Source: Candidatus Paralachnospira caecorum
Lineage (GTDB): Bacteria > Bacillota > Clostridia > Lachnospirales > Lachnospiraceae
Length of the DNA stretch: 64,000 nt
Assembly (NCBI GenBank): GCA_904379015.1
Contig: CAJFHG010000012.1
Location: forward strand, 40 to 64,039
Direction of reading: 5' to 3'
Shown here: one piece after another, positions 3,804-25,042 of the stretch
Numbering within the stretch: position 1 is the stretch's first letter
How the letters are laid out: each line of letters begins with the position of its first letter
Position numbers and translations under genes: made by a program
Notes under the pieces: model-generated
What the model was told of the DNA's origin: nothing
The model's input: the letters and a program-made list of their open reading frames with translations, nothing else
Database searches by the model: none

Positions 3804-5024
3804 ATGGATCGATCGGAACAGTTATTTCTGTCAGTGCTTGACAGTGTGATACACCATAAACCTCTGCCGGAAATCAGAGAAGTCTCAGACTGGGAGGGGG
3901 TGTTTGCCCTTGCCAGGCGTCATAATCTGCTGGCGCTGGTGTTTGAGGCCGCCGCGGAACTGCCGGAGACGGCGGAGCTGCCGGAATACGGAATCTGCCT
4001 GCAGGAGACCATGTCCACTGTGGCCTCTCAGGCCCAGAGGACAGCGGCATTTCTGGAATTATACCGCGCTTTTTCGGAAGCGGGGCTTGCTCCGCTGGTG
4101 ATGAAGGGGATCGTGTGCCGGGAGCTTTACGGAGAATACCGGGATCACCGGCCTTCCGGAGATGAGGATCTGCTGGTTGAAAAACAGGATTTTGAACGGG
4201 CCAGGGCAGTTCTGGAGGAACAGCGGTATGTGCCGGAGATGGAGTCGGTGACAGAGCGGCAGAAGGAAGATCTGCAGGAGGTGGGATTTTACGGCCCGGA
4301 TGCCGGGCTGTATATTGAGCTCCATCTGAATCCCATCGGACATGAGAATGAGTTTCGGGTTCAGCTGGAGGAATGCTTCCGGGATGTGTTCCGGAATTCC
4401 AGAGAATTAACGGTGGACGGTTTAACCATGCGCACTATGGGCCATGATGATCACTTCCTGTATCTGATCCTTCATGCGTTCAAGCATCTGGCGGGAGAGG
4501 GCTTTGGTATCCGGCAGGTGCTGGATGTTCTGCTTTATTATGAAAAATATGGCCGGGAAATAGACGGGGACAGGCTGGACGCCATGCTGGCCCGGACAGA
4601 GGCAAAGCGGTTTTTCGCGGATCTGGTGGAGATCGGGAACCGCTGTCTGGGATTTGATCTGGGGACGCGGGGAAGGACGAAATGCCCGGAGGAGCTTCTG
4701 GAAGAGCTGATGAGAAACGGCATTTTCGGGATGGATACCCAGGCCCAGAGAACGGCCGGGCAGATGATCGGCGCGGCCGTAGCGGCAGGGAAGCGGTCGG
4801 GTGCCGGAGGAACCTTTCTGCGCACGGTTTTTCCTTCCCGGAGACAGCTTCTGAACATGCATCCGGAGCTGGCGGAACGGCCGTGGCTGCTTCCGGTGCG
4901 CTGGGCGCAGCGGTGGGGCCGATTTATGGCGCACAGCAGACAGAACGACGGAAATCTGGCGAAGGAGAGCATGGAGATCGGAAAGAGAAGGATCCGGCTG
5001 CTGAAGAAATACGGAATTCTGTAG
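3804..5024 (+). CDS. Nucleotidyltransferase family protein (uncharacterised NTase type found near PqqD/lasso-type clusters)
   Basis: PLVMKGIVCRELY...RPSGDEDLLV...YIELH...YLILHAFKHL..GFGIRQVLD motifs; AAAGGA RBS before ATG 3804. Confidence 0.85.
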   Translation: MDRSEQLFLSVLDSVIHHKPLPEIREVSDWEGVFALARRHNLLALVFEAAAELPETAELPEYGICLQETMSTVASQAQRTAAFLELYRAFSEAGLAPLVMKGIVCRELYGEYRDHRPSGDEDLLVEKQDFERARAVLEEQRYVPEMESVTERQKEDLQEVGFYGPDAGLYIELHLNPIGHENEFRVQLEECFRDVFRNSRELTVDGLTMRTMGHDDHFLYLILHAFKHLAGEGFGIRQVLDVLLYYEKYGREIDGDRLDAMLARTEAKRFFADLVEIGNRCLGFDLGTRGRTKCPEELLEELMRNGIFGMDTQAQRTAGQMIGAAVAAGKRSGAGGTFLRTVFPSRRQLLNMHPELAERPWLLPVRWAQRWGRFMAHSRQNDGNLAKESMEIGKRRIRLLKKYGIL

Positions 5025-5061
5025 CGGGCGCGGCGGGATGGAAAAGAAAGGATGAGGATAA

Positions 5062-5613
5062 ATGGAACAGATCGGAAAAGCGCTGGACTGCCGTCTTCTT
5101 TCCACCAGAAGGATCGAGGACTGCCGCGGATGGTTTCAGGTCGCCTTCTGCGCGGATGATCTCAGAGCGATGGGAATGGATTTCGGGGCGGTCTGCCAGC
5201 TGAATCATTCCTTCACGGACCATGCGGGTGTCGTGCGCGGCCTCAATTATCAGGCCGCTCCCTTTGCGCAGGCAAAGATCATTCGCTGCGTCCGGGGATC
5301 CCTTTACAGCGTTGGCGCGGATATTGACAGAAATTCGGAACATTTTGGAAAGTGGTGCGGTTTTGTCCTGTCGGCCGGAGAGCATAACCTGATGTATGTG
5401 CCCCGGGGATATGCCCATGGCTTTATCTCTCTGGAGGATCACACGGAGCTGGAATACTTCACCGACAATCAGTATTCCTTTGAACATGCCAGGAGTGTTC
5501 GCTATGACGATCCTGACCTGGGGATTGACTGGACCCTGGGCGGGAAAATCCAGGTGCGCCGGGATATTTTATCTGAGAAAAACAGAAAAGCGCCCTGTCT
5601 CAGAGAACTCTGA
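5062..5613 (+). CDS. rfbC: dTDP-4-dehydrorhamnose 3,5-epimerase family (RmlC-like)
   Basis: DCRGWF...QLNHS...GVVRGL...QAKIIRCVRG...VPRGYAHGF...RYDDPDLGIDW...LSEK cupin motifs. Confidence 0.85.
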   Translation: MEQIGKALDCRLLSTRRIEDCRGWFQVAFCADDLRAMGMDFGAVCQLNHSFTDHAGVVRGLNYQAAPFAQAKIIRCVRGSLYSVGADIDRNSEHFGKWCGFVLSAGEHNLMYVPRGYAHGFISLEDHTELEYFTDNQYSFEHARSVRYDDPDLGIDWTLGGKIQVRRDILSEKNRKAPCLREL

Positions 5614-5658: not shown

Positions 5659-6021
5659 ATGGAAGAGGAGAACAGAATTGCCGCGGCGGAGCGGCTGGTC
5701 AAAGCGGCAGAGGATTATCTGAACGGAACCGGATACCGGACGGAGGAGCTTCTGGAGGAACTGCTCTGGGAGACGCTGGTCCTGTTTCAGGGCTGTTCTT
5801 TTTATACGGCAAAAAAGCTGGAATTCCAGTATACCATCAAAAGAAACGAAATGTTTGTCAGCCGGAAAAACAAGTCTATCACCAGGGCCACCGTCAATGT
5901 GGCGTTCCGGAAGCTTCTGGAGCTCGGATGCGCGGTGTCCGGTCCCAAAAAGCTGGGAACCTTCGGGGCCAGCTATGTGTACGCGGTATTTCTGGGGCTC
6001 GGACTGGTCCGGGCGGAATGA
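5659..6021 (+). CDS. Conserved hypothetical protein
   Basis: 120 aa ORF in operon-like spacing after rmlC; LWETLVLFQG..FYTAK.LEFQY...GPKKLGTFGASY looks protein-like. Confidence 0.6.
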   Translation: MEEENRIAAAERLVKAAEDYLNGTGYRTEELLEELLWETLVLFQGCSFYTAKKLEFQYTIKRNEMFVSRKNKSITRATVNVAFRKLLELGCAVSGPKKLGTFGASYVYAVFLGLGLVRAE

Positions 6022-6199: not shown

Positions 6200-6280
6200 G
6201 CCTGCCGTTTGCTTTGGCGGCGTTGCCGTTTGCTCCGATGGCATTACCGTTTACTTCGATGGTATCACCGTTTGTCCCGG
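6200..6280. repeat. Imperfect 21-bp tandem repeat x4
   Basis: The core CCGTTT recurs at 6205, 6226, 6247 and 6268 (exact 21-bp period). Confidence 0.7.
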
Positions 6281-9200
6281 CGGCGGGCCTTTCGCTCAGC
6301 AATTTCCGCCGCGGCCAGGATTCCCAGCGAAATAACGGCGGAAATCCCGCTGAAGAAGACAAGGGGAAGAAACTGCGTTCTGTCGCCTGTTTCTGGCGCC
6401 GTCAGTGAATCCGCGGAATCATCCGCTGCGGATGCTCCGGATTCTTCCGGATCTGTTTCGGCGGCGCTGCCCGGATCGTTTTCCGGAGCAGCCCCGGACG
6501 GTTCGCCGGGGGCCGCTGCGGAATTTTCGGAGCTTTCTTCTGGTGCGGTTCCGGATTCTTCCGGAGGCTGGCCGCCGCCTGACGGCGTTGTGGGAGTTTC
6601 CGGCCCGGAGGGGGTTTCCGGAGTCTCCGGTTCCGAGGGGGCCGTGTAACGGTTGCGGAAAACGGGAGCGCTGCCGCCTTCGTATTCCACAGACGCCAGA
6701 AGGTGCCCGCTCTGATCGTCCTTTACGGTGATGGCGATCCGATAGACATTCTGGTCGTAGGTGATCCCTTCTGCGCTGCCGGATTCTTCGGAAACGGTGT
6801 AGTAATACGTACCGGGCGCGTCGAAGGTGAGTGAAGGAAAGGGAATCGTTCCGCTTTCTGTGTTGACGGCCGCTGCCGCTTCCCGACCCTGTTCATCTCT
6901 TAACAGGAAGGAGAATTCACCGGCCTGCAGGCTGCGTCCCGTCAGCTCTTTTCCGGCGGTCAGGTACACGGTGGCCGGAGCGGGGCTGTAGGAGTTGCGG
7001 AATACCAGATCCCGCGCCGTCAGGTCGGCTGAGGCCTGGAGCGCGCCGCCCTGGTCGCTGACAGAAACGGTAATTTCATAGACCGTTTGATCGTACTGAT
7101 ATCCGGCCGTGCCCAGATCTTTTTCGTAGAGCCGGTACACATAAGTTCCGGCCTGACTGTACTGAATGGTCCCGAAGGAAAAGCTGCCCGCCATGTTCGC
7201 GGTTTCGGCAGAGGCGCCTGTCCCGCCCGGCATCGGCATGTCGCCTGTTGTGGAGGAGACTGCCTCCAGAACAAAGCGGAACTGTCCGTCCTTCATGGTT
7301 CCTCCGGTCAGTTCCTTGGTGCCGGAGATCACGTAGGAGGCCATGGAAGGGTGATACTGGTTTTCAAAGGCGATTGCTGCCGCCGGAGCGCCGTCCTTCG
7401 TATAAGAAACATCTGCCTGAAGCTGTCCGCCGGCATCTGTGACCTGAACCGTTATGACAAACACGCTGCTGTCGATGAGAATGCCGCCGGCGGAGGTGTT
7501 GTTTTCCCGCACCGTATACCGGTAGGTTCCGGCTTCTGTGTAGGTGACGGGGCCGTTCAGAAGCGGGATTCTGCCGTCCGCCGCATTCGTAAGGGCCTCG
7601 TTGGCTGCGACCGGGTCGGAGGCGGGATTACTCTGGTCAGGAATCAGGCTGAAGCTGAATTCTCCGCCCTGCATGGTGTAGCTGCTGCCGCTCTGGGCGG
7701 TCACAGTTTTCCGGGCCTCCAGGCCCGTTCCGAAGACGGAAACGGGAGCAGGCGTGTAGGCGTTGGTGAATTCCACCGCGGCGTCCTGCGTCGTGATGAT
7801 GCCGGAGGCGCTGCCGGCTCCCGGCGTTACAGCGCCGTTCACGGAAACGGAGCTGAGGGTGTAGCCCGGCGGCAGATTGATTTCTGTGACCGTATACCGG
7901 CTGTGGGCGGCGATATCCGGTATGGCAATGGTCTCTCCGCCACTCAGGGTAAATTCAACGGAGCCGGAACTGCTGAAGGAGAGGGTTTCCGGGCTTGTTT
8001 CCTGTCCGTTTTTCCGGACGGCGCTGACAGACTGACCTGCTTTGGAAGGCAGAGAAAGGGAAAAGGTGAAGGTCTGGTCCGGCGCAGTCAGCCCGCCGGC
8101 CGTTTCTGTCTTTTTCCCAATGGTCAGAGAATGGCTCAGGGCGTCCGCCTGAAGGAGCCCGTTATTCCCCAGATAGACCCGGAAGGCGCCGTTTCCGGCA
8201 TAGGTGGGATAATAACAGGACTGCGCGGTGCCGGTCGTGTTGGAGGTCTTGAGTTTTTCAAAGTCCCTTAAATTGCCCAGTCTCGGCGCGCCTGCCTGAA
8301 GCTCCAGCTGTCCGCCGGGACCGGTGGGAGCCGCGGCAGGCGTTCTGTCTGTCTCGTAAAAGATGGAACCCTTGCGGGACACGACTGCCGTTTCAGAAGC
8401 GGTGCCGTCATAAAACCGGATCTGGAAATAGTAGACCGTGTCCGGATCCAGCGCCCCGTCAGCCGGATGATTCAGGTGTTCGTCCAGGTACAGAGGCGTA
8501 TTTTCCTGGACATAGTAAAAGGGATTGGTGTGTGCCGGCGTGAAGGTCACAAAGGCGTCTCCCACCGTCGCTCCGCCGTCCTGTGATCCGCCGTATCCGG
8601 GGTCTGTATCCCCGCTGTAGCGGCCGCTGTAAAAATTGACCCGGCTGTCGGAGACGTTCGCGGCAAGATAGGACTCAGACAGCGCGGCGGTATTGGCCGT
8701 GCCGTCGCTGTTCAGAACCTGGTCCTGTGTTCCGACGCTGTAAATGACCCGGATCGGATAGGCTTCGCCGGCCGTGTGGTCTGCCGCGGTGCCGTCCGCG
8801 TTCAGCGTGATCTCATTGACCCGCATGGGGATCGCGGCTGCCGGAATTTTCACGGTGAGTTCCTGGGTTTTCTCCCGGGTCAGAGGATCGGTGACAGTTT
8901 TGACGGCGATTTCGATCAGCCCCGCGTCGATCTTGCCGTATACGGGACTGTCCACCTGTCCCTGGAAGGTATAAGAGACCGTGTCGCCGGAGGTCCGGAC
9001 ATCTTTCTGGGTAAATTCTGTTCCTCCGTAGATCAGTTCCCGGATATCTTTGATCTCCATGTATGCTCCGATATAATCGGTATAAGTGATGTATCCGTCG
9101 TGGAAGGCGTCGTTTCCGGTGACTTCAGTGGGCACCTGGGCCGCGGCCACGATTTCCGAGACAATTTCTGTGAATATGGTGTTCAGTTCATCAGAATCCT

Positions 9201-10656
9201 CCGCCGAATAATAGGCGTCCGGGTAATAGAGGGAGTCCGGATTGCGTTCTGTGTCGGCGATCAGGACCTGATAGTCCCGCTCATCTCCGTTGGAACCCAG
9301 CTTTCCCCGGACTGTGGGGGTATGGCCGCCGCTGTAGTCCTCCCATGCCCGGGCGATCTGCCGGACGGCCTCATGGCTGCTTGCCTGGGCCGTATCCAGG
9401 TGAGCTTCGGGATCCAGTACGAGTCCGGCCATTTCCGCCATGCCGTCGGTCTGGAGGGCGGTGCTGAATCCGATGGTATAGACGCTGGCAGCGTCCTGGC
9501 TGTCAGGAGTCCCGTAATAGTGGGCGGTGATCTCGTTTTTCATATAGGCGGCCGTCAGAAGGGCCATAAAGCCGTTGGCGCTGTGGGGATTGGAATTGTC
9601 CCCGCCGCCGATGGCTTCGCTGGAGACGCCCTCCCACCAGGAACCGCTGCTGGTGTCGTCCCCCCGCACGTCCGTGTCGTGGGTGATGGTGCCGTGCTGT
9701 CTGGCGCTTCCGCTGTCTGTCCAGCTGGCATCCGCGGCGGAGGCGAAGGTGGTGGGCGCGCCGTCTGACATCAGCACCACATTGGGAAGCCGGGTCACGG
9801 TGCCGCCCGCGGCGGTCCTGAATTCTGTGTCCTTTGCTTCGGACAGAATGCGCATGCCTTCGTAGAGTCCGGCCTGGATATTGGTTCCGCCGGCAGTCGA
9901 GACAGTCTTCTGATTGATGCTGCTGGTGATCTGCGCCTTTCCGTCGTCCTGTCCGGTCGTGCCGGAGAACTGGCTCATGGTGAGATAGGTTCCCGAGGTT
10001 CTGACATGCCCGGGAATGTCCTTTATTTCGGTCAGTTCCAGCAGCGTGTCAGAACTGCCGTTGAATACGGCAATGGCGATCCGGTTATGGGCGCTGCTTT
10101 TTGCCAGAACGTCGATGGAGCTGTTCAGGGCTTTTACCATGGCCTGGATCCGGGAATCGCTTCCGTCCTCCAGGGAAACTTTCTGAGAATCAACGCCCCA
10201 GCACATGCTTGCCGAGAGGTCGAGGATGAATACCACGTCCGCCGGCTGTCCGGAGATGACCTTCGTGGAAGTCGCGAAGGCGGAATAGGTGACCAGGAAA
10301 TCTTCGTTTTCCAGCTTCTGGATCTGAACAGAGTCTCCCGCGTCGCCGGTAAAGGTCAGATCTTCCGTGCTGACAGACTTGTCTGTCCAGACACGGCCTG
10401 AATAACGGGTGGAATCGGTATCTCCCAGCCCGGTTTTGTAAGAGCTGCGTGTATCGCTGTCGGCGGCGGCTGTCAGTCCGGCCGCCTGCGCCAGCAGGGG
10501 GGATGCTTCCCGGGGAAACGCCGTGAACGCCAGTGCTGCGGCCAGAAAAGCCGCCGCTGCGGCGCGGAGGGTTTTCCCGCAGAAAGACGAAGCTTTGCGG
10601 TGACGCAGAGCTTTTTTCGATTTCTGGTTTACAAACCTGTTTATAAAAACGTTCAT
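6265..10656 (-). CDS. Large sortase-anchored pilin/adhesin: vWA domain, CnaB/Spy0128(FctA)-like repeats, APETG sorting signal
   Basis: N-terminal signal peptide; MIDAS DVVFILDLSASM; three K(E/T)(L/V)T...F.F.L...GTY.Y...E repeats; Pro/Glu-rich linker; APETG plus TM helix plus basic tail RKARRRDKR. Confidence 0.85.
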   Translation of the reverse strand: MNVFINRFVNQKSKKALRHRKASSFCGKTLRAAAAAFLAAALAFTAFPREASPLLAQAAGLTAAADSDTRSSYKTGLGDTDSTRYSGRVWTDKSVSTEDLTFTGDAGDSVQIQKLENEDFLVTYSAFATSTKVISGQPADVVFILDLSASMCWGVDSQKVSLEDGSDSRIQAMVKALNSSIDVLAKSSAHNRIAIAVFNGSSDTLLELTEIKDIPGHVRTSGTYLTMSQFSGTTGQDDGKAQITSSINQKTVSTAGGTNIQAGLYEGMRILSEAKDTEFRTAAGGTVTRLPNVVLMSDGAPTTFASAADASWTDSGSARQHGTITHDTDVRGDDTSSGSWWEGVSSEAIGGGDNSNPHSANGFMALLTAAYMKNEITAHYYGTPDSQDAASVYTIGFSTALQTDGMAEMAGLVLDPEAHLDTAQASSHEAVRQIARAWEDYSGGHTPTVRGKLGSNGDERDYQVLIADTERNPDSLYYPDAYYSAEDSDELNTIFTEIVSEIVAAAQVPTEVTGNDAFHDGYITYTDYIGAYMEIKDIRELIYGGTEFTQKDVRTSGDTVSYTFQGQVDSPVYGKIDAGLIEIAVKTVTDPLTREKTQELTVKIPAAAIPMRVNEITLNADGTAADHTAGEAYPIRVIYSVGTQDQVLNSDGTANTAALSESYLAANVSDSRVNFYSGRYSGDTDPGYGGSQDGGATVGDAFVTFTPAHTNPFYYVQENTPLYLDEHLNHPADGALDPDTVYYFQIRFYDGTASETAVVSRKGSIFYETDRTPAAAPTGPGGQLELQAGAPRLGNLRDFEKLKTSNTTGTAQSCYYPTYAGNGAFRVYLGNNGLLQADALSHSLTIGKKTETAGGLTAPDQTFTFSLSLPSKAGQSVSAVRKNGQETSPETLSFSSSGSVEFTLSGGETIAIPDIAAHSRYTVTEINLPPGYTLSSVSVNGAVTPGAGSASGIITTQDAAVEFTNAYTPAPVSVFGTGLEARKTVTAQSGSSYTMQGGEFSFSLIPDQSNPASDPVAANEALTNAADGRIPLLNGPVTYTEAGTYRYTVRENNTSAGGILIDSSVFVITVQVTDAGGQLQADVSYTKDGAPAAAIAFENQYHPSMASYVISGTKELTGGTMKDGQFRFVLEAVSSTTGDMPMPGGTGASAETANMAGSFSFGTIQYSQAGTYVYRLYEKDLGTAGYQYDQTVYEITVSVSDQGGALQASADLTARDLVFRNSYSPAPATVYLTAGKELTGRSLQAGEFSFLLRDEQGREAAAAVNTESGTIPFPSLTFDAPGTYYYTVSEESGSAEGITYDQNVYRIAITVKDDQSGHLLASVEYEGGSAPVFRNRYTAPSEPETPETPSGPETPTTPSGGGQPPEESGTAPEESSENSAAAPGEPSGAAPENDPGSAAETDPEESGASAADDSADSLTAPETGDRTQFLPLVFFSGISAVISLGILAAAEIAERKARRRDKR

Positions 10657-11049: not shown

Positions 11050-11079
11050 TTGACAGAACCATACGGGGGGGGGTAAAAT
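11050..11079 (+). promoter_or_regulatory. sigma70-type promoter with a G9 homopolymer in an 18-bp spacer
   Basis: TTGACA (11050-55), then GAACCATAC and GGGGGGGGG (11065-73), then TAAAAT (11074-79); about 110 bp upstream of the first PqqD gene. Confidence 0.75.
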
Positions 11080-11189
11080 GGGGTGAGACATTTGAGCCGG
11101 CGAAGTCCCGCAGGGGGCCGGTGAAGCTGTCTGAAGAGGGAAACTGTTAAATTTATCCCGGAAAATGTTGTAGAGACACAGTGATAAAA

Positions 11190-11948
11190 ATGGAAAAAGA
11201 GCAGAAGCAGAAACGGCGGCAGGAGCAGCAGATCATGCGGCAGGAGAGCCATGCGGCGGAAGAACAGATGGAACAGCACAGGTCCCGGAGCCAGGAGCCG
11301 GAAAAGGAACCGTATGTACCGGTGAGGGCCGGTGTTCTGAGCCAGGAAGAGGCGGCACGCGTAAAAGAAGTTCTGGCTGCTGAGGAAACTGCCGGGGAGG
11401 CTGCCGGAAACATTGCCGGCAAAGCAGATATCCAAAAAGAGAACGTCAAAAAAGCAAACACGGAAAAAGAAAACATCGAAAAAGAATATGCCGAAGAAGA
11501 AACTATCAGAAACGATATGGTAAAAGAAGATGCGGGGACGGGAGACGCGAAGGCGAAGGCCGCGGAGGCCGGTGCAGACCGGAAAATCCGGTATAAGCTG
11601 TCGGAAGGGCTGAAAATGCGCAAGGTGGCAGGACAGACCATGATTGTTCCCATCGGTTCGGCTGTCAGGACCATCGGCCAGACAGCGGTGCTCAATCCGG
11701 AGGCGGCGTTTCTGGTCAGCCAGATGAAAGAATGGTTCACGCCTGAGGAAGTTGTCAGGAAGGGACTGGAGGTGTATGACGCCGATGAGGATAAGCTCCG
11801 CTCCGATGTCATGGAGCTGGTGGAGATACTTTTCCGTTCAGGAATGCTGATTGAGGATACAGAGGATGGACGAGGTAAGAGAGGACGGGCGTCAGGAATT
11901 GTCCGGGTTCCCGCAGGGAAGGATTTACCCGGTCCAGGCAGCCTTTGA
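11190..11948 (+). CDS. PqqD-family RiPP recognition element with a long acidic/charged N-terminal extension (module 1)
   Basis: The C-terminal half YKLSEGLKMRKVAGQTMIVPIG...LNPEAAFLV...DVMELVEILFRSGML has the PqqD fold; the first ~130 aa are E/K/A-rich low complexity. Confidence 0.8.
   Translation: MEKEQKQKRRQEQQIMRQESHAAEEQMEQHRSRSQEPEKEPYVPVRAGVLSQEEAARVKEVLAAEETAGEAAGNIAGKADIQKENVKKANTEKENIEKEYAEEETIRNDMVKEDAGTGDAKAKAAEAGADRKIRYKLSEGLKMRKVAGQTMIVPIGSAVRTIGQTAVLNPEAAFLVSQMKEWFTPEEVVRKGLEVYDADEDKLRSDVMELVEILFRSGMLIEDTEDGRGKRGRASGIVRVPAGKDLPGPGSL
11433..11537 (+). repeat. Degenerate 15-bp coding repeat in the PqqD extension
   Basis: CAAAAAGAGAACGTC/AAAAAAGCAAACACG/GAAAAAGAAAACATC/GAAAAAGAATATGCC/GAAGAAGAAACTATC encodes QKENV KKANT EKENI EKEYA EEETI. 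Confidence 0.6.
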
Positions 11949-13035: not shown

Positions 13036-13114
13036 ATAAGAGAAGCAATAAGAAAAACAGGTAAAAAGAAAAAGTAAGATAAAGTCAGAGCGTGATGCTC
13101 GAGAGGAGGAAAAT

Positions 13115-14300: not shown

Positions 14301-14368
14301 TACAGAAAAAAGTGTTAAAATATGCATAAATAATCAAGAGTAATTTATCAAATATGCACAAAAATGCA

Positions 14369-14397
14369 TTGACAAAAAATGGAAGTAAAGATATAGT
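14369..14397 (+). promoter_or_regulatory. sigma70-type promoter of module 2
   Basis: TTGACA (14369-74), 17-bp spacer, TATAGT (14392-97). Confidence 0.7.
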
Positions 14398-14467
14398 TAG
14401 AGTGAATTGCAGAGGAAATAACGGATATCTGTCTAAGAAATGGAAGCATTTAGATTGGAGGACGAAA

Positions 14468-15867: not shown

Positions 15868-15869
15868 AA

Positions 15870-17012: not shown

Positions 17013-17131
17013 GGATGCTGCAGGCCGCCCTGTATGTTTCGTTGACGTGGGAGAACGATTCATGGTAGGATAGAGGTATGACTGAGGGCAAATACATTTT
17101 TGTAGGAGAGATGAAGAAAGGCGGTAATTAT

Positions 17132-18040
17132 GTGGCCCAAAAAGATATCGCGGAGAAAATCCTCGAATCCTACAACGATGTATTTTCTGACATCGTAAAT
17201 GTTCTGCTGTTTGACGGAAGAGAAGTTGTGCCGGCTGATGAGCTTGAGGATCAGGCTCCCCGTGCATATTACAAGACAGATGGAAAAATACGAGAGATAG
17301 AAAGAGATGTGGCGAAGCGCTGGAAACAGGGAGGTATACGGATTGCCTGTGTGGGTCTGGAAAATCAGACCCGGGCAGATCCGGACATGCCTCTGCGTAT
17401 AATCGGATATGACGGTGCTGAGTACAGAGCGCAGCTGCTGGCGGATCGTATGGCTGGAAGCCGTTATCCTGTGGTCACGCTGGTCCTGTATTTCGGCTGT
17501 GAAAAGCATTGGGATCAGCCTCTTAGTCTGAAGGAACGACTGGAAATACCGCCCGAATGGGACCGTTTTGTGAATGACTATAGGATCAATTTGTTTGAAA
17601 TTGCTTATCTGGATGCAAATCAGGTTGAGCTGTTTCAGAGTGATTTTCGGATCGTTGCAGATTACTTTGTGCAGAAACGGGAGAAAGGTGATTACATCCC
17701 CAGTGAACGGGAAATCAGACATGTGCAGGAGACGCTGCAGCTGCTTAGCGTAATGTCAGGGGATTACCGATTTGAAGAGGCATATTATAGTAGTGAGGCG
17801 GAAGGAGGCCTGCGTAATATGTGTGACGTGCTGGATCGAGTGGAGTCAAAAGGAATTGAAAAAGGAATTGCAAAAGGAATTGAGAAAGGTCTTAGAGAAG
17901 GCAGGATGGAGGCCAAAAGGGAAATGGCTGTTTCATTGGCAGAAATGGGATTATCTGTGGAAAAAATCGCAGAAGCTGCCAGGGTAAGCACCGAGGTGGT
18001 GAGACAGTGGATTGCCTGCGGCGGTCATCCGGCGGGATAA
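17132..18040 (+). CDS. Rpn-family recombination-promoting nuclease / putative transposase (PD-(D/E)XK)
   Basis: QKDIAEKILESYNDVFSDIVN...ERDVAK...GLENQT..D..MPLR...YD...YPVVTLVLYFG; C-terminal EKGIAKGIEKG.REG repeats. Confidence 0.8.
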   Translation: MAQKDIAEKILESYNDVFSDIVNVLLFDGREVVPADELEDQAPRAYYKTDGKIREIERDVAKRWKQGGIRIACVGLENQTRADPDMPLRIIGYDGAEYRAQLLADRMAGSRYPVVTLVLYFGCEKHWDQPLSLKERLEIPPEWDRFVNDYRINLFEIAYLDANQVELFQSDFRIVADYFVQKREKGDYIPSEREIRHVQETLQLLSVMSGDYRFEEAYYSSEAEGGLRNMCDVLDRVESKGIEKGIAKGIEKGLREGRMEAKREMAVSLAEMGLSVEKIAEAARVSTEVVRQWIACGGHPAG

Positions 18041-18248
18041 GGAATTGCAGCATATACGGCAGCAGCCAATCAAAGCGCTGCACAGATATCGGTTTGGATT
18101 TGAGGTTATATGACAAAAATGCGGAAGAAGACCAGGAATGTCGATTTTCGCATTTTTTGTTTGCGCAAGCTGCTTTCCCCGGGCCCGGGGCATATTTCCG
18201 GACTGATTTCCAGATTTTCCGGATTTTCCGGAAAATTCCTGTCGGTTC

Positions 18249-18343: not shown

Positions 18344-20107
18344 GTGTTTCGGTTCGTGAGCCGCTTGTTTCAGAAATTATTTGCGAAAAACTGGGGGAAG
18401 ATCATTTCTTCCTGGATCTGGATCTACAGCTATGTGAAGCGGTACTGGCTGCAGATCGCGGTCTATACAGTCCTGGGCCTGTTCGGAACTGTGTTCGGGC
18501 TGGCCGGCAGCGTGGTGTCCAAAAACCTGATCGACGCGGTGACGGGCTTTAATTCGGATTCGATTGGCTGGGCCTTTGGGCTCTATGTGGGCCTGGGGGT
18601 CAGCCGCGTGTTCATCAACATTGTGACAGGCAAGATTTCTCTGCTGATCTCTACCAAGGTGGCCCATGAGATCCAGGCGGATGTCTTTGACCAGGTGATG
18701 TGCACGGACTGGGAGGCCATGTCCGATTATTCCACGGGAGATCTGCTGGTGCGGACTTCCGGTGATTCGGCGGTGATCTCCAACAGCGTCCTGAGCTTTA
18801 TTCCGAGCGCCGTTACGGCCATCGCCAATTTTATCGGGGCCTTTGCCATTGTCTGCTGGCATGATCCGCTCATGGCGGTGATCGCGCTGGCCGGAGCGCC
18901 GGTGACGGTGATCACTTCCCGGTACCGGCTGGAGAAAATGCAGCAGTTCCAGAGGGAAAATCAGGATCTGTACAGCAAGAAGATGAGCTTTGACCAGGAA
19001 ACATTCCAGAATACTCAGTCCATCAAGGCCTTCGGCCTGATCAGTCAGTTCTCGAAAAAGATGCGGGAGCTGCAGCAGGAGTCGCTGGCCCTTTCGCTGC
19101 GCCAGTACCGGTATCAGTCGGTCACGTCCATTCTGGTATCCCTCACCGGCCTGGCTGTCAGCTATTCCTGTTACGGGTTTGCCGTCTGGCGGCTGTGGCG
19201 GGGGGATATTTCCTACGGCACGATGACTCTGTTCGTGTCCATGGCCTCTTCCCTGACCGGCTCCTTCAGCTCGGTGGTCAGTCTGATCCCCACGGCGATC
19301 CGCTCCGCCACCAGCGCCGAGCGGATCATGGATATCATCACCCTTCCCCGGGAGTCCTATGAGGATCAGGAGAGGGCGGAACAAATCCGGGATATCGGGC
19401 GGAAAAAAGGCGCTTACGTTCATATGGAAAACGCGGGCTTTGCCTATAAGGACGGGCGCGATGTGTACAGACATGCCGATATGGAAGCGAATCCGGGCGA
19501 GATCGTGGCTCTGATCGGGCCCTCGGGCCAGGGCAAGACCACCACCCTCCGGTTGTTTCTGGGGCTTCTGCAGCTGAAGGAAGGCCGGATCCGGGTGGGA
19601 AATCCGGGCGGAGACGAGCTTTTCGTGTCCCCTTCGACCCGGTGCCTGTTCAGCTACGTTCCCCAGGGAAACACCATGTTTTCCGGAACGGTGGCGGATA
19701 ATCTGAGGATGGTGAAGCCGGAGGCCACGGACCAGGAGCTGAAGGAAGCGCTGGAGGCGGCCCATGCCTGGGAATTTGTGGGCCGTCTGGAAAAGGGCAT
19801 GGATACCAGGGTGGGAGAACGGGGACTGGGCTTTTCTGAAGGCCAGAACCAGCGGCTCTCCATTGCCAGAGCGCTCCTGGCGGACGCGCCGCTCCTGCTT
19901 CTGGACGAGGCGACCAGCGCCCTGGATGTGGCGACAGAACGGAAGGTGCTGCGCAGCATCATGAAAAAGGACCCCTACAGGACGATTGTGGTGACGGCCC
20001 ACCGGCCCAGCGTGTTTTCCATGTGCAGCAGAGTTTATAAGATACAGGACGGCGGGATAGAGGAAGTGGACGAGCAGGGAATCAGACAGTTCCTGGAAGC
20101 ATTCTAG
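18344..20107 (+). CDS. ABC exporter, fused permease/ATPase, no C39 peptidase domain
   Basis: Six-TM N-terminal half; GPSGQGKTT Walker A; FSEGQ signature; LLLLDEATSALD Walker B. Confidence 0.9.
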   Translation: MFRFVSRLFQKLFAKNWGKIISSWIWIYSYVKRYWLQIAVYTVLGLFGTVFGLAGSVVSKNLIDAVTGFNSDSIGWAFGLYVGLGVSRVFINIVTGKISLLISTKVAHEIQADVFDQVMCTDWEAMSDYSTGDLLVRTSGDSAVISNSVLSFIPSAVTAIANFIGAFAIVCWHDPLMAVIALAGAPVTVITSRYRLEKMQQFQRENQDLYSKKMSFDQETFQNTQSIKAFGLISQFSKKMRELQQESLALSLRQYRYQSVTSILVSLTGLAVSYSCYGFAVWRLWRGDISYGTMTLFVSMASSLTGSFSSVVSLIPTAIRSATSAERIMDIITLPRESYEDQERAEQIRDIGRKKGAYVHMENAGFAYKDGRDVYRHADMEANPGEIVALIGPSGQGKTTTLRLFLGLLQLKEGRIRVGNPGGDELFVSPSTRCLFSYVPQGNTMFSGTVADNLRMVKPEATDQELKEALEAAHAWEFVGRLEKGMDTRVGERGLGFSEGQNQRLSIARALLADAPLLLLDEATSALDVATERKVLRSIMKKDPYRTIVVTAHRPSVFSMCSRVYKIQDGGIEEVDEQGIRQFLEAF

Positions 20108-20292
20108 CCGGGCTTTCCGCGGCCGGAAGACGGACATAGGGCCGGGCCGCGGATGGACGGATCCATCGAAGAATCGATCGTCAGACAGAACCTGGGACAG
20201 AGATCAGGACAGACAGGAATGGACCGGATCAGACAGAGGCGGGCCAGACAGGGACCGGCCATACAGGGACAGACCAGAACAGGAGCGGATGA

Positions 20293-20907
20293 ATGGCAGG
20301 ATTTGCGGCGGGAATTTTGAATGATGTGTTGTTGTCTTTTTATCAGCAGTTCGGGGCGGCGCTTTTGACTGCTGTTCTTTTCATGTACGTGTATATGCAT
20401 GTGAAAAAATACGGCGGAAAAGAGACGGTGCGGGCGTGGTTTGCCGGTTTCCGGAGAGAGAAGGAATTCAGAAAAGTCTTTCTGCTGGCATTTTATACCA
20501 TGATGATCCTGTTCAAGACGCTTTTGTGCCGTTCCATCTGGGTCAATCCCCTTTCAGATGTACTTGGGACCTGGGGCCTGTATGACAGCAAGGGACAGCT
20601 TTATCTGGATAATATTGAAAATCTGATGCTGTTTGTGCCCTTTGCCGCGCTGTTTCTCTGGACGGCGGGAAAGCGCGTATTCGGAGAACGGAGGAGATCG
20701 CCGGGCAGAAGCCTGGCCTGGGCCGCCGGGATCAGCTTTTTCGTGTCCCTTGGGATCGAGCTGCTCCAGCTGTTTCTCAAGCTGGGCACTTTTCAGGTTT
20801 CCGACCTGTTTTTCAACACCCTGGGCGGGGCGGCCGGAGGGCTGCTTTACTGGGGGCTGCACCGGCTCCGCATGAGGCTGGGGCGGGGCGGCCGGAAAAT
20901 CAAATAA
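20293..20907 (+). CDS. VanZ-family membrane protein
   Basis: IENLMLFVPF...SLGIELLQLFLKLGTFQVSDLFFNTLGG. Confidence 0.85.
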   Translation: MAGFAAGILNDVLLSFYQQFGAALLTAVLFMYVYMHVKKYGGKETVRAWFAGFRREKEFRKVFLLAFYTMMILFKTLLCRSIWVNPLSDVLGTWGLYDSKGQLYLDNIENLMLFVPFAALFLWTAGKRVFGERRRSPGRSLAWAAGISFFVSLGIELLQLFLKLGTFQVSDLFFNTLGGAAGGLLYWGLHRLRMRLGRGGRKIK

Positions 20908-21220
20908 GAGAGACAGAAAGGCAGGTGAGGAGTTGCTCATCTGCTTTTTGGCGCTTATAATCGGAAAATGAGGAAATCTGCCGTGATCTGCCGTCTGCTC
21001 CGCGGAAATCTGACAGAGACAGATGCGGAACGGACGGGGAAAAATGTGATAATTGAAAATTTTAGGAAAAGATTGTAAAAAAATACAATCTTTTCTGTTC
21101 TGCAAGGGTTTTCTTATTTACCGGTTTATGGTAAAATGTGCACCGAATAGTTTCATGACAAGGGTCTGGTCCGGAACCGGTCCGGACCGGCAGATTGAGA
21201 TAAGGAGTACGATACAGAGA

Positions 21221-22048
21221 ATGAAGTTTGTGAAGGCATTGGTGATCATCGCTTTTGTCGCGGCTGTCGGTGTGTTTTCACTGGCTCAGTTCCGGGAATG
21301 GAGAGGCAGGGATACTTCGGTCCCGGAAATCACCAGCGACAGAGAGGTGCTGGAGGTAACCTGCGATTATACGGAGGAGCAGCTCCTGGAGGGGCTGCAG
21401 GCCTATGATGAAAAGGACGGGGATCTGACCGGCGAGATTCTGGTGGGGGATATCTCCCGTTTTATAGAAAAAGGTGTCTGCAATGTAACCTATGTGGTAT
21501 TTGACTCATCCAACCAGCCGGCGTCCCTTGTCAGGCAGATCCGGCTCACCGACTATCATTCGCCCCGGTTCGCGCTGTCAGAGCCCCTGGTTTTTGAGGC
21601 CGGTACGGGCAGCTATACGGATACCGTCAGCAAAATATCGGCGTCGGATCTGCTGGACGGGGATCTGACCCAGTGGATCCATCAGACGGATACAGACGTC
21701 AACTATCAGATCGCGGGAACCTACCATATGACCATGGAGGTGACCAACAGCTTCGGGGACACGGCTTCGGTGGCGTTTCCGGTCCATGTGGTCCAGGAGA
21801 ATCCTGAGGGGCTGGATATCCGGCTGACCGCGCCGATTCTTTATGTCAGCCAGGGAGAGGCGGTGGATCCCGCGCAGTGGCTCGAGGGCGTTTACGACAG
21901 TGAGGGAGAGGCACTGGGAACTGAGATCGTGACCACCACCTCGGATCTTGACGTGCAGACGCCGGGCTGTTATGAGATCGCCTATTACGCAGACGACGGA
22001 GCGGGACATACCGGTGAAAACTGGCTTACCGTGGTAGTACAGGGATAA
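21221..22048 (+). CDS. Membrane-anchored protein with tandem bacterial Ig-like (DUF5011-type) domains
   Basis: N-terminal TM; three repeats of P....A.D..DGDLT...G.Y.(V/M)TY.V.D patterns. Confidence 0.7.
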   Translation: MKFVKALVIIAFVAAVGVFSLAQFREWRGRDTSVPEITSDREVLEVTCDYTEEQLLEGLQAYDEKDGDLTGEILVGDISRFIEKGVCNVTYVVFDSSNQPASLVRQIRLTDYHSPRFALSEPLVFEAGTGSYTDTVSKISASDLLDGDLTQWIHQTDTDVNYQIAGTYHMTMEVTNSFGDTASVAFPVHVVQENPEGLDIRLTAPILYVSQGEAVDPAQWLEGVYDSEGEALGTEIVTTTSDLDVQTPGCYEIAYYADDGAGHTGENWLTVVVQG

Positions 22049-22060
22049 AGGAGGCCAATC

Positions 22061-23437
22061 ATGGATCGGCAGGCAGTACATTTGGATGAGATCAGTCTCA
22101 GAGGCGCCGTAAAAGAGCTTTTGAGAAATTTCTGGATGATTCTTCTGACGGCGGCCGCGGTATGGCTGGGCGCCACGGGAGTCGGGAAACTGGTTTATTC
22201 GCCGCAGTATACGTCGTCAGCCACGCTGGCGGTGACGGAGAGAGGCGGGGGAAGCAGCTATTCCTCCCTCCTTCAGATGACAGAGATGGCGGCGGTATTC
22301 AGCGAAGTATTTGAGAGCGATGAGCTGAAGGCGACCATTTCCACGGATCTGGGAGAAAGAATGGAGGGAACGCTGTCCTGCAGCCAGATCGAGGAGACGA
22401 ACCTGATCGTCCTGAACGCGTCGGCGTCTACTCCCAGACAGGCTTATCAGTATATCCACTCGGCGCTGGAGCATTACGAGAGCGTTTCGGAGTATGTGTT
22501 CTCCAATGCCTCTCTGCAGACAGTCCAGGAGCCTTCCGTGCCGGAAAGCCCTTCCAACAGTTCCCGCCTGATCCGTCTGCGGAATCTTCTGACGGCTGCG
22601 GGGGCCGTGGGGATCTGTGCGGTGATCCTGCTGTTTTATCTGTTCCGGTTTACAGTCAAAACCCCCGAAGGCGCGGCGCGCCAGCTGGACGGAACGGTTC
22701 AGGGGATCATTCCTTATGAAAAACGGGGCAGGAAGAAAAAGAGAAAAACAAAAGAAGCGCCGCTTCTCACCTCGCCGCTGGTCAGCATGGATTATTCTGA
22801 AGCTCTGCGGCGGATGGAGGCCAGAGTGGAACGGCATATGCGGAGAAAAAAGCAGAAGGTGCTCCTGATCGTCAGTGTCGGCGAGAATGAAGGAAAATCT
22901 ACTGTGGCGGCCAATATTGCCCTGGCCATGGCGGAGAAGCATAAAAAAGTGCTGCTGCTGGAAGGGGATCTGAGAAAACCGGCTCAGCATAAGGTGTTTG
23001 ATGAGCTTTCGGTCGGACGGATTTCCTTTTCTGAGGTGCTGGCGGGAAAAGCCGGCTGGAGAGAGGCGGCAGTGAGAAATGCCAAAAACGGCGTGAGAGA
23101 GCTGTTTCAGTTCCAGCCGGTCGCGGAACCCTCCAGGATCCTGGATCTTTCCCTTCTGAAGCGCCTGCTGGAGGAAATGAAGCAGGAGATGGATTATATC
23201 ATTGTCGATACGCCGCCTACGGCGGTGGCCGCCGACGCGGAACTCTGGATGCAGGTCTGCGATACGGCGCTTCTGGTGGTCCGGGAGGACTGGTCTGATG
23301 TGCGCGCGGTCAACGATACGGTTGATCTGATCTGGCAGAGCAGCGGCGATTTTGCTGGATTTGTGCTGAACGCGTTCCGGGGGAAGACGGTCCGGAATCA
23401 GTACGGATACGGTGAATATGCAGGACATGAGCGGTGA
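22061..23437 (+). CDS. Wzz/Wzc-like polysaccharide co-polymerase fused to a BY-kinase domain (copy 1)
   Basis: DEISL..., two TMs, VSVGENEGKST Walker A, LLLEGDLRKP, IIVDTPP, short YGYGEY tail. Confidence 0.85.
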   Translation: MDRQAVHLDEISLRGAVKELLRNFWMILLTAAAVWLGATGVGKLVYSPQYTSSATLAVTERGGGSSYSSLLQMTEMAAVFSEVFESDELKATISTDLGERMEGTLSCSQIEETNLIVLNASASTPRQAYQYIHSALEHYESVSEYVFSNASLQTVQEPSVPESPSNSSRLIRLRNLLTAAGAVGICAVILLFYLFRFTVKTPEGAARQLDGTVQGIIPYEKRGRKKKRKTKEAPLLTSPLVSMDYSEALRRMEARVERHMRRKKQKVLLIVSVGENEGKSTVAANIALAMAEKHKKVLLLEGDLRKPAQHKVFDELSVGRISFSEVLAGKAGWREAAVRNAKNGVRELFQFQPVAEPSRILDLSLLKRLLEEMKQEMDYIIVDTPPTAVAADAELWMQVCDTALLVVREDWSDVRAVNDTVDLIWQSSGDFAGFVLNAFRGKTVRNQYGYGEYAGHER

Positions 23438-23464
23438 CGGCACGCAGGAAGCCGGGAGAGGAGA

Positions 23465-25042
23465 TTGGTCAACATGGAATACCGGAAAATGGAAGGCACT
23501 GTGCTGACAGAACCGGATGATGATGAGATTGAAATAGATCTGGGGGCCCTCTGGCGGGATTTCAGGCGGGTCTTCAGGCGATGGTGGTGGCTGGTGGTCG
23601 TTCTCGCCCTGGCGGCGGCGACGGCCTTTTACGGCTATCAGTATATGAATTACGAACCCATGTATGAAAGCAGCGCGACTTTTACGGTGGGAACAGGCGA
23701 TGAGGACAGCGGAAGTTATGGATTCTATTATTCGCAGACGACGGCGGACCAGCTGTCAAAATCCTTCCCATACGTGCTGGAGAGCAATTATTTCAGGAGC
23801 GTCCTTCTGGACGCGATGGATGCCGACAGCCTGAACGGCACGATCACCGCGGAGACCGTGGAGGGCTCCAACGTGGTCACCATGCGGGTGCGCAGCAGCA
23901 GGGCCGAGGACGCCAAGGCGATCCTGGACGCGGCACTGGAGGTTTATCCGGAAGCGGCCAGATTTGTCCTGGGGACGATCCAGTTCCATATGATCAGCGA
24001 ACCCCAGCTTCCCGCGGCGCCTTATAATATCCTGAGCCTGAGACGGCTCCTGGTGCTGGGAGGCGGCGCCGGAGCGGCTGCGGGGCTGCTGATCCTGATC
24101 GTGATGGCCTTTCTGCGCAGGACGGTGAGAACGCCGGAGGAAATGCAGAAGATCACCAGTATGAAATGCCTGGCGGCGGTGCCCCAGGTCCGGCAGAAGG
24201 CCAGGAAGAACAGGAAGGAAGAGCGGCTTTCTGTTCTGAACAAGCGGATGCCCTATGATTTCAGGGAAAGCATTCAGGCCCTTCAGATCCGCGCCGATTC
24301 CGCCATGAAAAAGAACGGGAAAAAGGTGCTCATGGTCACCAGCAGCATGGCCGGGGAGGGAAAGTCCACGGTGGCTCTGAATCTGGCGGAAATGCTGGCC
24401 TCCAGGGGGAACCGGGTGCTGTTGATCGACGCGGATCTGCGCAGGCAGGAGGACGCGAAGACGCTGGGCTGCGGAGACGGAACCGGACTTCAGGATCTGT
24501 TCAGCGGGACCCGCGGAGGCAGAGGACGGATCCGCTATCTGAAGGAAAACGGATTCTATTTCATCGGCAGCAGCCGTCCCCAGAAAAACCCGGCCGGAGC
24601 GCTCAGCCATCCGGGCTTCCCGGAATTCCTGGAAAAAATGAAGGGGAAAATGGATTACATCATCCTGGATACTCCGCCCTGCAGCATGTTCCAGGACGCG
24701 GTGATCCTGGCCGAATATGCGGATTCCATCCTTTATGTGGTGAAATATGATTTTGTTTCCCGGAAAAAGCTGGTGGAAAGCCTTTCCTTCCTGGAAGAGA
24801 GCCGGTCGCTGTTTCTGGGCTACGTATTCAGCGCCTATCCTCAGACAGCGGGAGACTACGGCTACGGCAGGTACGGCTATGGAAAGTATGGCTACGGAAG
24901 ATACGGATACAGCCGGTATGGATATGGCCGGTATGGGTCCGGGAAAGAGGGCTATGAGCGGCGGAGCCGCCGGAACGCCGGCGATGGGGACAGCCGGGAG
25001 GAAGCGGATATCCTGACCGGAGAAGACGGAGGCTTCGAGTAG
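23465..25042 (+). CDS. Wzz/Wzc-like polysaccharide co-polymerase fused to a BY-kinase domain (copy 2)
   Basis: EIEIDL..., TSSMAGEGKST, LLIDADLRR, IILDTPP, very long C-terminal Tyr cluster. Confidence 0.85.
   Translation: MVNMEYRKMEGTVLTEPDDDEIEIDLGALWRDFRRVFRRWWWLVVVLALAAATAFYGYQYMNYEPMYESSATFTVGTGDEDSGSYGFYYSQTTADQLSKSFPYVLESNYFRSVLLDAMDADSLNGTITAETVEGSNVVTMRVRSSRAEDAKAILDAALEVYPEAARFVLGTIQFHMISEPQLPAAPYNILSLRRLLVLGGGAGAAAGLLILIVMAFLRRTVRTPEEMQKITSMKCLAAVPQVRQKARKNRKEERLSVLNKRMPYDFRESIQALQIRADSAMKKNGKKVLMVTSSMAGEGKSTVALNLAEMLASRGNRVLLIDADLRRQEDAKTLGCGDGTGLQDLFSGTRGGRGRIRYLKENGFYFIGSSRPQKNPAGALSHPGFPEFLEKMKGKMDYIILDTPPCSMFQDAVILAEYADSILYVVKYDFVSRKKLVESLSFLEESRSLFLGYVFSAYPQTAGDYGYGRYGYGKYGYGRYGYSRYGYGRYGSGKEGYERRSRRNAGDGDSREEADILTGEDGGFE
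24853..24960 (+). repeat. Coding pentapeptide repeat (R/K)YGY(G/S) forming the tyrosine cluster
   Basis: DYGYG RYGYG KYGYG RYGYS RYGYG RYGSG KEGYE; 12 Tyr. Confidence 0.85.

Follow-up and report, generated by a model that had tools for sequence, protein, structure and literature searches.

Are the two peptide-maturation cassettes and the two capsule-type tyrosine kinases that lie close together in a genome of Candidatus Paralachnospira caecorum parts of one system, or a peptide cluster that stands beside leftover capsule genes? The stretch of DNA analyzed here (the window, 64,000 nucleotides) is nearly the entire contig CAJFHG010000012.1 (C12) of a genome assembly of 2.59 Mb in 55 contigs, with the window starting at position 40 of the contig. 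A first-pass annotation of the same sequence had described cassettes for ribosomally made, post-translationally modified peptides (RiPPs) embedded in capsule-like machinery that lacks a capsule. It had proposed that the pair of co-polymerase/bacterial tyrosine kinases (BY-kinases) may control export or surface assembly of a modified peptide or peptide-glycan conjugate rather than of a classical exopolysaccharide (EPS). Our inventory, based on the open reading frame (ORF) listing together with Pfam and NCBIfam scans, recovered the genes it had named at the same positions. The peptide genes and the capsule-type kinases almost certainly work together, and we hold with moderate confidence that they form one conserved functional unit that acts through an exported, cross-linked and phosphorylated small protein at the envelope.

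Linkage of the peptide cassettes to a tyrosine-kinase pair

The unit has two halves. The maturation module comprises a PqqD protein, a radical S-adenosylmethionine (SAM) enzyme, a precursor of 90 to 150 aa, an HprK/ScmC-like kinase, and an MsbA-type ATP-binding cassette (ABC) exporter, to which a PF14907 nucleotidyltransferase is often added. In the envelope module are an immunoglobulin (Ig)-like membrane protein and two fused Wzz/tyrosine-kinase proteins, with a CpsB phosphatase after them in most species. The modules are co-inherited, and their genes are packed as in a single operon. In the window, the peptide genes form two cassettes (11181-14165 and 14354-16933), each with a PqqD, a radical-SAM enzyme, a small ORF and an HprK-like protein. 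The genes concerned are the following.

3804-5024, plus strand: PF14907 (NTP_transf_5) nucleotidyltransferase, a candidate PsmN/LppN-like tailoring enzyme (Pfam E = 9e-43; DED motif in the sequence)
11181-11948, plus strand: PqqD1, with a predicted RiPP recognition element (RRE) domain at residues 154-223 after a K/E-rich N-terminal extension (Pfam PqqD E = 2e-6; lasso_PqqD match)
11851-13035, plus strand: radical SAM/SPASM-like maturase 1, with a likely start near 11899 (Pfam Radical_SAM E = 4e-24; gene call taken from an identical conspecific contig)
13115-13435, plus strand: pep1, a precursor-like small protein of 106 aa (family alignment A4; hidden Markov model match)
13362-14165, plus strand: kin1, HprK-like/ScmC-family (PF27840) kinase, with homology beginning at ~13431 (P-loop GPSGIGKTT and NGD motif)
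14354-14794, plus strand: PqqD2, a predicted RRE (Pfam PqqD E = 3.5e-11)
14791-15867, plus strand: radical SAM/SPASM-like maturase 2 (Pfam; best solved relatives SkfB at 4e-14, then PqqE and SuiB)
15870-16160, plus strand: pep2, a precursor-like small protein of 96 aa (family alignment A4; hidden Markov model match)
16148-16933, plus strand: kin2, HprK-like/ScmC-family kinase (Hpr_kinase_C 6e-4)
17078-18040, plus strand: possible Rpn/YhgA-like nuclease/transposase-like gene, a weak match (TIGR01784, 31.7 bits, under the cut-off)
18344-20107, plus strand: MsbA-type half ABC exporter without a peptidase domain (Pfam ABC_membrane and ABC_tran)
20293-20907, plus strand: VanZ-family membrane protein, a sporadic companion (Pfam E = 6e-17)
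21053-22048, plus strand: membrane protein with bacterial surface Ig-like domains (Pfam PF16403)
22061-23437, plus strand: fused Wzz and BY-kinase, kinase a (Pfam Wzz and AAA_31/ParA)
23465-25042, plus strand: fused Wzz and BY-kinase, kinase b, with a long C-terminal Tyr cluster (Pfam; Tyr-rich tail read from the translation)

Inspection by eye showed intact Walker motifs (A, A' and B) and Tyr clusters at the C terminus in both Wzz/BY-kinases. A scan with one genome per species, annotated by profile searches, yielded 80 loci, 70 of which were informative; the latter came from Lachnospiraceae-, Oscillospirales- and Erysipelotrichales-type genomes. At least one Wzz/BY-kinase was encoded within 10 kb of the kinase cassette in 66 of these 70 loci, and two were encoded in 61. 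The recurring order was PqqD, radical SAM, small ORF, kinase, ABC, (nucleotidyltransferase), Ig-like, kinase a, kinase b and (Ig-like), with the genes in parentheses not always present, and it was found in genomes labelled Blautia, Mediterraneibacter, Sellimonas, Dorea, Ruminococcus, Thomasclavelia, Faecalicoccus and others. A second, Acutalibacteraceae-type order begins with Ig, kinase, kinase, ABC, PqqD, radical SAM, small ORF and kinase, and continues with (nucleotidyltransferase), a priming transferase and glycosyltransferases, so that the peptide half and the kinase half still adjoin after the rearrangement. Five loci were labelled as named isolates rather than metagenome-assembled genomes (MAGs), namely Sellimonas intestinalis BR72, Mediterraneibacter glycyrrhizinilyticus An427, Thomasclavelia saccharogumia DSM 17460, Faecalicoccus pleomorphus DSM 20574 and Lachnoclostridium sp. 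An181.

Gene spacing in these loci is operon-like. Median gaps were -9 nt between PqqD and radical SAM, 7 nt between ABC and Ig, 13 nt between Ig and kinase a, and -3 nt between kinases a and b; in the alternative order, they were 10 nt between kinase b and ABC and -9 nt between ABC and PqqD. The Ig-like gene always stood directly before kinase a (66 loci for the median given). Furthermore, the association holds at the genome level. Among 300 genomes of the order, evenly drawn, the fused kinase lineage occurred in 10, and all 10 of these encoded an ScmC-like kinase, versus 33 of the 290 others (Fisher p = 1.4e-9); in 6 of the 10, both genes lay on one contig, ~2.5 to 9 kb apart. Conserved synteny, operon-like spacing and genome-level co-occurrence all attest that the linkage between the peptide cassettes and the BY-kinase pair is real, which gives strong support to the earlier proposal that the two belong together. 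The flanking genes do co-occur with the RiPP modules, the opposite of what would have refuted that proposal.

The genes in the window belong to this lineage. In tblastn searches against Lachnospiraceae-type loci, the window ABC scored ~410 to 940 bits (typically 560 to 750) where the ABC gene in its place was complete, and the window kinases scored 380 to 550 bits against the orthologues beside cassettes. The ABC, Ig and kinase genes of the window are orthologues of the cassette-linked lineage and not of the paralogues present on contig C26 of the same genome, which are described below.

The surroundings of the unit are also recurrent. Counts of Pfam matches among the ORFs of the ~4 kb that follow kinase b (42 loci) gave the CpsB/CapC phosphatase in 27, LCP in 6, VanZ in 4, Bac_transf in 3 and GT4 in 2, the remainder being unrelated housekeeping genes. 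The related loci thus do not always lie beside a complete wzy-type EPS cluster, a priming transferase being found within ~4 kb downstream in only 3 of the 42. Upstream, 27 loci were read over the 5.5 kb that precede PqqD, and their 103 ORFs included 22 with Response_reg, 12 with LytTR, 10 with His_kinase, 10 with HATPase_c_5, 3 with PF14907 and 3 with LCP. The full unit therefore usually runs from a two-component system through the peptide module, exporter and Ig-like protein to the kinase pair and CpsB. Both the LytTR two-component system and CpsB, usual elsewhere, are missing at the window locus.

A simpler explanation would be that the adjacency has no direct function, with RiPP clusters and capsule regulators hitch-hiking in variable surface islands and the pump, the Ig-like protein and the kinases serving polysaccharide only. 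The block is indeed accessory within the genus. The LPG_synthase_C-GNAT-Sir2 genes that follow it are kept in the 16 other genomes of the genus, the 3.8- to 25-kb block was found upstream of them in none of the 11 genus genomes with up to 20 kb readable, and the fused kinase lineage occurred anywhere in the genome in only 2 of the genus's other genomes. Two features that the first-pass annotation had overlooked fit the same explanation: the Rpn/YhgA-like gene between cassette 2 and the ABC exporter, and a drop in GC content from 53 to 60% to ~40% (39 to 44%) over 13.05 to 17.0 kb, exactly from pep1 to kin2 (PqqD1 and maturase 1 have 55%, and the ABC gene 58%). This GC mosaic is also present in the conspecific contig L003. 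In addition, the paralogous block on C26 has no cassette. However, 66 of 70 loci keep the adjacency, in three orders and despite a rearrangement, with junctions that overlap or span less than 15 nt; together with the genome-level co-occurrence given above, this makes hitch-hiking very improbable.

Maturation enzymes, precursors and known relatives

What would such a unit make? The radical-SAM enzymes (PF04055) carry CxxxCxxC and an auxiliary-cluster Cys motif, read from the translations (in maturase 1, a C-terminal CX2CX5CX2C); radical-SAM enzymes with such motifs and an RRE partner are a feature of sactipeptide/ranthipeptide-like RiPP systems. The HprK-like proteins gave weak matches to Hpr_kinase_C and TIGR00679, with the P-loop and the NGD motif conserved, and more than 1,300 homologues of the family carry the recent Pfam model PF27840, "ScmC". 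In the NCBIfam scan, neither the kinases nor the precursors nor the nucleotidyltransferase matched a specific family. Searches of PDB sequences returned no match for the nucleotidyltransferase, and a kinase profile returned matches at the level of the P-loop only.

An ORF of 87 to 153 aa stands between the radical-SAM and kinase genes in nearly all related loci. In the alignment A4, which holds 56 sequences including pep1, the N terminus carries a short "YVxVxA" strand; in the Acutalibacteraceae type it carries MKKKYxxPxxxL instead, similar to the [Y/W]xxP motif that lasso RREs read (PMC13381572). Next come a Gly/Ser-rich stretch and, later, a helical NLNxxF region. The block W...GGFTG.GW includes W38 (nearly invariant), G47 (invariant, inside GGFTG) and W53 (nearly invariant), and an invariant Cys lies 2 to 10 residues before the C-terminal end (C94 in pep1); no Ser or Thr in the alignment is conserved beside this Cys. 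No Pfam family was recorded for the precursors, the newer precomputed release included. An AlphaFold2 model of pep2 placed residues 1 to 21 in a disordered segment and predicted a modest C-terminal fold (predicted local distance difference test score of 65, moderate), and a Foldseek comparison of this model with the PDB assigned no fold, with nothing below E = 6.9. Since the sactisynthase SkfB (PDB 6efn; 4e-14) is the closest solved relative of the radical-SAM enzyme and the precursor Cys is invariant, a thioether at this Cys is suggested, as a prediction only. The similarity to SkfB is low, and the substrates here are ~100 aa long.

The duplicated cassette of the window is rare among the related loci, being otherwise seen only in L003/L004, L008 and L082. 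A separate variant in L005 to L007 and L016 has two PqqD/ABC sets per locus: a BY-kinase, a 327-aa ORF, PqqD, ABC, a 41-aa ORF, a 960-aa protein and LCP are followed further on by PqqD, radical SAM, a 119-aa precursor, an ScmC kinase and a second ABC.

Several known systems share parts of this gene set. Closest in content are the linear polyphosphorylated peptide (LPP) clusters, such as lppA-K-B-S-D-N of Paenibacillus alginolyticus, which combine an RRE, an HprK kinase, an NTP transferase and a pump like MsbA, often co-localize with capsule loci in Bacilli, and have biological roles that are unknown according to the authors (Popov et al., Nat Commun 2026; PMC13381572). Both systems have a discrete PqqD-type RRE (PF05402, in both cassettes here), an HprK-like kinase, a PF14907 transferase and an MsbA-like exporter; LPP precursors likewise reach up to 200 aa with a conserved N terminus, and both systems occur in or beside capsule loci with a BY-kinase. 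In contrast, the SipW-like archaeal-type signal peptidase I of the LPP clusters was not found here, and a radical-SAM/SPASM-like enzyme is present instead, as the maturase that defines the class. The precursors lack YxxPxVLxHQxIxFETxxS and have the YVxVxA leader, the W...GGFTG.GW block and the invariant C-terminal Cys. Moreover, tight operonic spacing joins the unit to two fused Wzz/BY-kinases and Ig-like proteins, and it occurs in Clostridia and Erysipelotrichia rather than in Bacilli.

The lasso clusters of the paeninodin and pseudomycoidin type (PadeK; PsmK and PsmN) similarly share a split RRE, an ABC pump, an HprK-like kinase and a related nucleotidyltransferase with the window. They differ in their Asn-synthetase-like macrolactam cyclase and transglutaminase-like B2 peptidase, neither of which was found in the window, whereas the precursors here are far longer and a radical-SAM enzyme is present. 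In these clusters the kinase acts on a Ser of the precursor, in some of them more than once. For pseudomycoidin, the first-pass annotation had rightly stated that a kinase and a nucleotidyltransferase yield a phosphorylated and glycosylated peptide: once PsmK has poly-phosphorylated the C-terminal Ser, PsmN, of PF14907 type, puts 1 or 2 hexoses on the phosphate (PMC6993621).

Because defining features of the LPP and lasso classes were checked and not found, the unit, as far as its sequences tell, is not a member of either. By gene content it is a radical-SAM variant of the LPP and paeninodin-type phosphopeptide clusters, and by analogy it most likely works in a related way. The SynChlorMet (SCM) cassette, with ScmC, the PqqD-like ScmD and the radical SAM/SPASM enzymes ScmE and ScmF, offers a further comparison and shares three parts with the window: the PqqD-like protein, the radical SAM/SPASM enzymes and an HprK-like protein of the ScmC family (PF27840). 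However, the radical-SAM enzymes of the window scored only 71 to 73 bits against ScmE and 55 to 62 bits against ScmF (cut-off, 400), and the kinases did not match the NCBIfam ScmC model. We know of no described link between the SCM cassette and tyrosine kinases.

From the capsule side, Gram-positive Wzy-dependent loci have a conserved 5' region, cpsA-B-C-D, followed by cpsE. The Wzz co-polymerase and the BY-kinase of this region recur here in fused and duplicated form, and its CpsB PHP phosphatase and sometimes LCP recur in relatives of the window locus. The priming transferase, glycosyltransferases, flippase and polymerase, in contrast, are absent from the window and from the vicinity of most Lachnospiraceae-type loci, and the peptide maturation module stands where the sugar-polymer genes would be. 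Among the papers searched, including those on radical SAM with capsule and tyrosine kinase and on the Ruminococcus gnavus capsule, we found none that describes this unit. Phosphopeptide clusters of the paeninodin and LPP types near capsule genes in Bacilli were already known; here a radical-SAM relative stands in one operon with a dedicated capsule-type tyrosine-kinase pair, in ~60 gut species of three orders. What had been a general notion about RiPPs and nearby capsule loci thereby becomes a partnership that can be tested on defined genes.

Strain variation, sugar loci and the role of the product

The reading that we favor can be laid out as a sequence of steps. PqqD would bind the disordered N-terminal "YVxVxA" (or YxxP) leader, and the SkfB-like radical-SAM enzyme would then cross-link the invariant C-terminal Cys, probably through a thioether. 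Next, the kinase, its variable N-domain reading the variable core, would phosphorylate Ser/Thr, and the nucleotidyltransferase would extend the phosphate. Once exported by the ABC pump, the product would act at the envelope outside the cell with the Ig-like proteins and the Wzz ectodomains, as a component or assembly factor of a tyrosine-kinase-controlled surface-polymer machinery and not as a free antibiotic. If the peptide is indeed a component, primer or ligand of the tyrosine-kinase machinery, this would be a new principle in surface-polymer control, and it would also account for strain-level surface diversity in gut commensals.

Variation within the species bears on which protein reads the core. 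The whole locus is kept in conspecific contigs from many metagenomes and in the NCBI MAG GCA_019116425.1. Conspecific strains share ~99% identity in the flanks and 95 to 97% in the cassette region, apart from two segments that blastn did not align:

13181-13630, no strand assigned: hypervariable segment 1, the pep1 core and the kin1 N-terminal domain
15874-16439, no strand assigned: hypervariable segment 2, pep2 and the kin2 N-terminal domain

At least four pep1 alleles occur in the species, and the precursor cores and kinase N-domains vary together among the strains. Because the kinase N-domain co-varies with the core while the region from ABC through kinase b is 99% identical between strains with differing peptide cores, the N-domain probably reads the variable core and the envelope module does not. 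By the same comparison, the ABC, Ig and kinase proteins cannot be reading it; recognition of the variable core by the Wzz or Ig ectodomains, another candidate, was rejected on this conservation.

Some conspecific contigs depart from the common arrangement. Contig L003 (10931-20786) matches the window at 95 to 99% identity from the adhesin up to where the Rpn-like gene ends (window 17078-18050), after which unrelated genes of lower GC content stand in place of the ABC-VanZ-Ig-kinases segment; the junction reflects either variation between strains at the Rpn-like gene or chimerism of the metagenome assembly. In the long-read contig L129, the adhesin, maturase 1, kin2 and ABC genes are all split or truncated, through either decay of the locus in that strain or assembly indel errors.

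The sugar side of the question depends on the rest of the genome. As the first-pass annotation had stated, the window has no glycosyltransferase, priming transferase, CpsB, Wzx or Wzy, and housekeeping genes resume (LPG_synthase_C, GNAT, Sir2 and rpsF-ssb-rpsR, from 25.1 kb). Pfam searches on all large ORFs in the rest of the window likewise found no glycosyltransferase, Bac_transf, LCP, CpsB or Rml gene, so that priming transferase, glycosyltransferases, Wzx and Wzy are lacking throughout the 64 kb; tblastn with the capsule-type genes of C26 gave no match on the window's contig. Of the hallmarks of a Wzy-dependent locus, the Wzz co-polymerase with BY-kinase is present in two fused copies. A Wzy_C profile had no match in the whole genome, a weak negative since Wzy proteins are very divergent.

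The description of a machinery that lacks a capsule does not extend to the genome, however. Contig C26 (~20000-39900) bears a classical polysaccharide locus, rich in glycosyltransferases and headed by a paralogous ABC-Ig-kinase-kinase block (tblastn). Its order is CapD-like dehydratase, MsbA-type ABC, sortase, LCP, Ig-like, CpsB, Ig-like, two fused Wzz/BY-kinases, Bac_transf, aldo-keto reductase, split transketolase, GT4 and GT2/GT4, and it reaches past the contig end. The C26 ABC is 44% identical to that of the window, and the C26 block has no peptide cassette. Three further priming-transferase loci lie on C3, C5 and C34, and CpsB and LCP homologues were found in the genome on C26 only. An RmlC paralogue, 35% identical, is on C5, and RmlD/RmlB-like genes are on C36 and C4. 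Any sugar polymer of this genome would have to come from C26, C3, C5 or C34, and because the sugar loci are on other contigs, the window kinase pair could act on a polysaccharide made elsewhere. The exporter family is not strictly tied to peptides, and the candidate role of the ABC pump as simply a RiPP exporter is less certain in view of the paralogue in the cassette-free C26 locus. Among the related loci, sugar-polymer genes adjoin the unit in one lineage only, where the cassette lies within classical EPS operons, which likewise runs counter to the notion of a capsule-free system.

Several observations weigh against the reading of an exported peptide that works at the envelope with the kinases. 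The cassette-free C26 paralogue means that the exporter and the kinases may serve polysaccharide alone. The ABC, Ig and kinase proteins, nearly identical between strains with different cores, cannot be reading the variable core. No leader peptidase was found, with no S24/S26 peptidase domain in ORFs of at least 85 aa between 3.8 and 25 kb. The nucleotidyltransferase lies 6 kb from the cassettes, beyond the oppositely oriented adhesin, and its orthologues occur upstream of or within only 23 of the 70 related loci (~1/3). A promoter-like site (consensus scan) precedes the ABC gene in the window and the Rpn-like gene splits that gene from cassette 2, so that co-transcription is less certain in the window than in its relatives. 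Finally, most related loci have an upstream LytTR/histidine-kinase pair, which would suit a signaling peptide equally well.

This last point leads to a different account, in which the peptide is a secreted pheromone sensed by the upstream LytTR two-component system, the kinases and CpsB are co-transcribed regulators of distant polysaccharide synthesis, and the hypervariable cores are pherotypes. It is favored by the abundance of Response_reg, LytTR, His_kinase and HATPase_c_5 among the upstream ORFs, by the kinase/phosphatase pair as a regulatory circuit, and by an allelic hypervariability like that of the agr and com pherotypes. On the other hand, the window locus has no adjoining two-component system, the Oscillospirales-type order has the cassette within the EPS operon itself, and the precursors are long (90 to 150 aa), conserved over their full length and without a dedicated leader peptidase. 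We regard the pheromone account as rather unlikely, though tenable.

The peptide-glycan conjugate of the first-pass annotation gives another account. Here the peptide would be phosphorylated and then, by way of the nucleotidyltransferase, glycosylated or extended with polymer, with the Wzc-like pair controlling the export or surface assembly of a peptide-primed or peptide-anchored polymer and not a classical EPS. Consistent with this, most Lachnospiraceae-type loci have a capsule front end (kinases, CpsB, sometimes LCP) without glycosyltransferases within ~4 to 5 kb, the other gene order puts the cassette and nucleotidyltransferase directly before the priming transferase, and PsmN-type enzymes attach hexose to the peptide phosphate. 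In addition, the precursors are long, partly foldable and hypervariable among strains, like surface antigens. These points are set against the absence of the nucleotidyltransferase from about two-thirds of the loci, the ordinary sugar loci elsewhere in the genome, the lack of a conserved Ser/Thr beside the invariant Cys, and the inactivity of LppN in a heterologous host, in the only LPP reconstitution (PMC13381572). A peptide-glycan product is thus possible but doubtful.

A more specific version, in which the small protein, cross-linked by the radical-SAM enzyme and phosphorylated on Ser, serves a surface polymer as its ribosomally made primer, anchor or cap, seems to us decidedly improbable. 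The peptide-phosphate(-sugar) would then take the role of the undecaprenyl-pyrophosphate-sugar of ordinary capsule synthesis, and the polymer would be assembled by the Wzc-like pair and the Ig-like proteins, joined by LCP in loci that have it. If this were true, the hypervariable cores would be strain-specific surface types.

Neighboring genes

Four further features lie between the nucleotidyltransferase and cassette 1.

5062-5613, plus strand: lone RmlC-type dTDP-4-dehydrorhamnose 3,5-epimerase (Pfam PF00908 E = 4e-49)
5659-6021, plus strand: 120-aa ORF with no Pfam match, conserved in conspecific strains
6265-10656, minus strand: predicted sortase-anchored adhesin of 1463 aa (Pfam VWA, DUF7601/SpaA-like and three FctA isopeptide domains)
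11050-11079, plus strand: promoter-like site TTGACA-18-TAAAAT before cassette 1 (consensus scan only)

The 120-aa ORF encodes a protein found in identical form in 83 indexed blocks of the collection, with the same context on the contigs read. The adhesin ends in a sorting signal, PETG followed by a hydrophobic tail, as read from the translation. Just upstream of the promoter-like site, the intergenic segment 10889-10983 is unalignable between conspecific strains.

Two ORFs lie upstream of the nucleotidyltransferase. The 208-aa membrane-protein ORF at 2742-3368 (minus strand) is a truncated copy of a gene that encodes 413 to 414 aa at this place in the conspecific contigs L126 and L127. At 219-848, a LacI-type protein has the periplasmic-binding-like domain alone, without a helix-turn-helix; conspecific contigs have a MazE/PIN toxin-antitoxin pair and a large DUF4011 helicase ahead of this protein.

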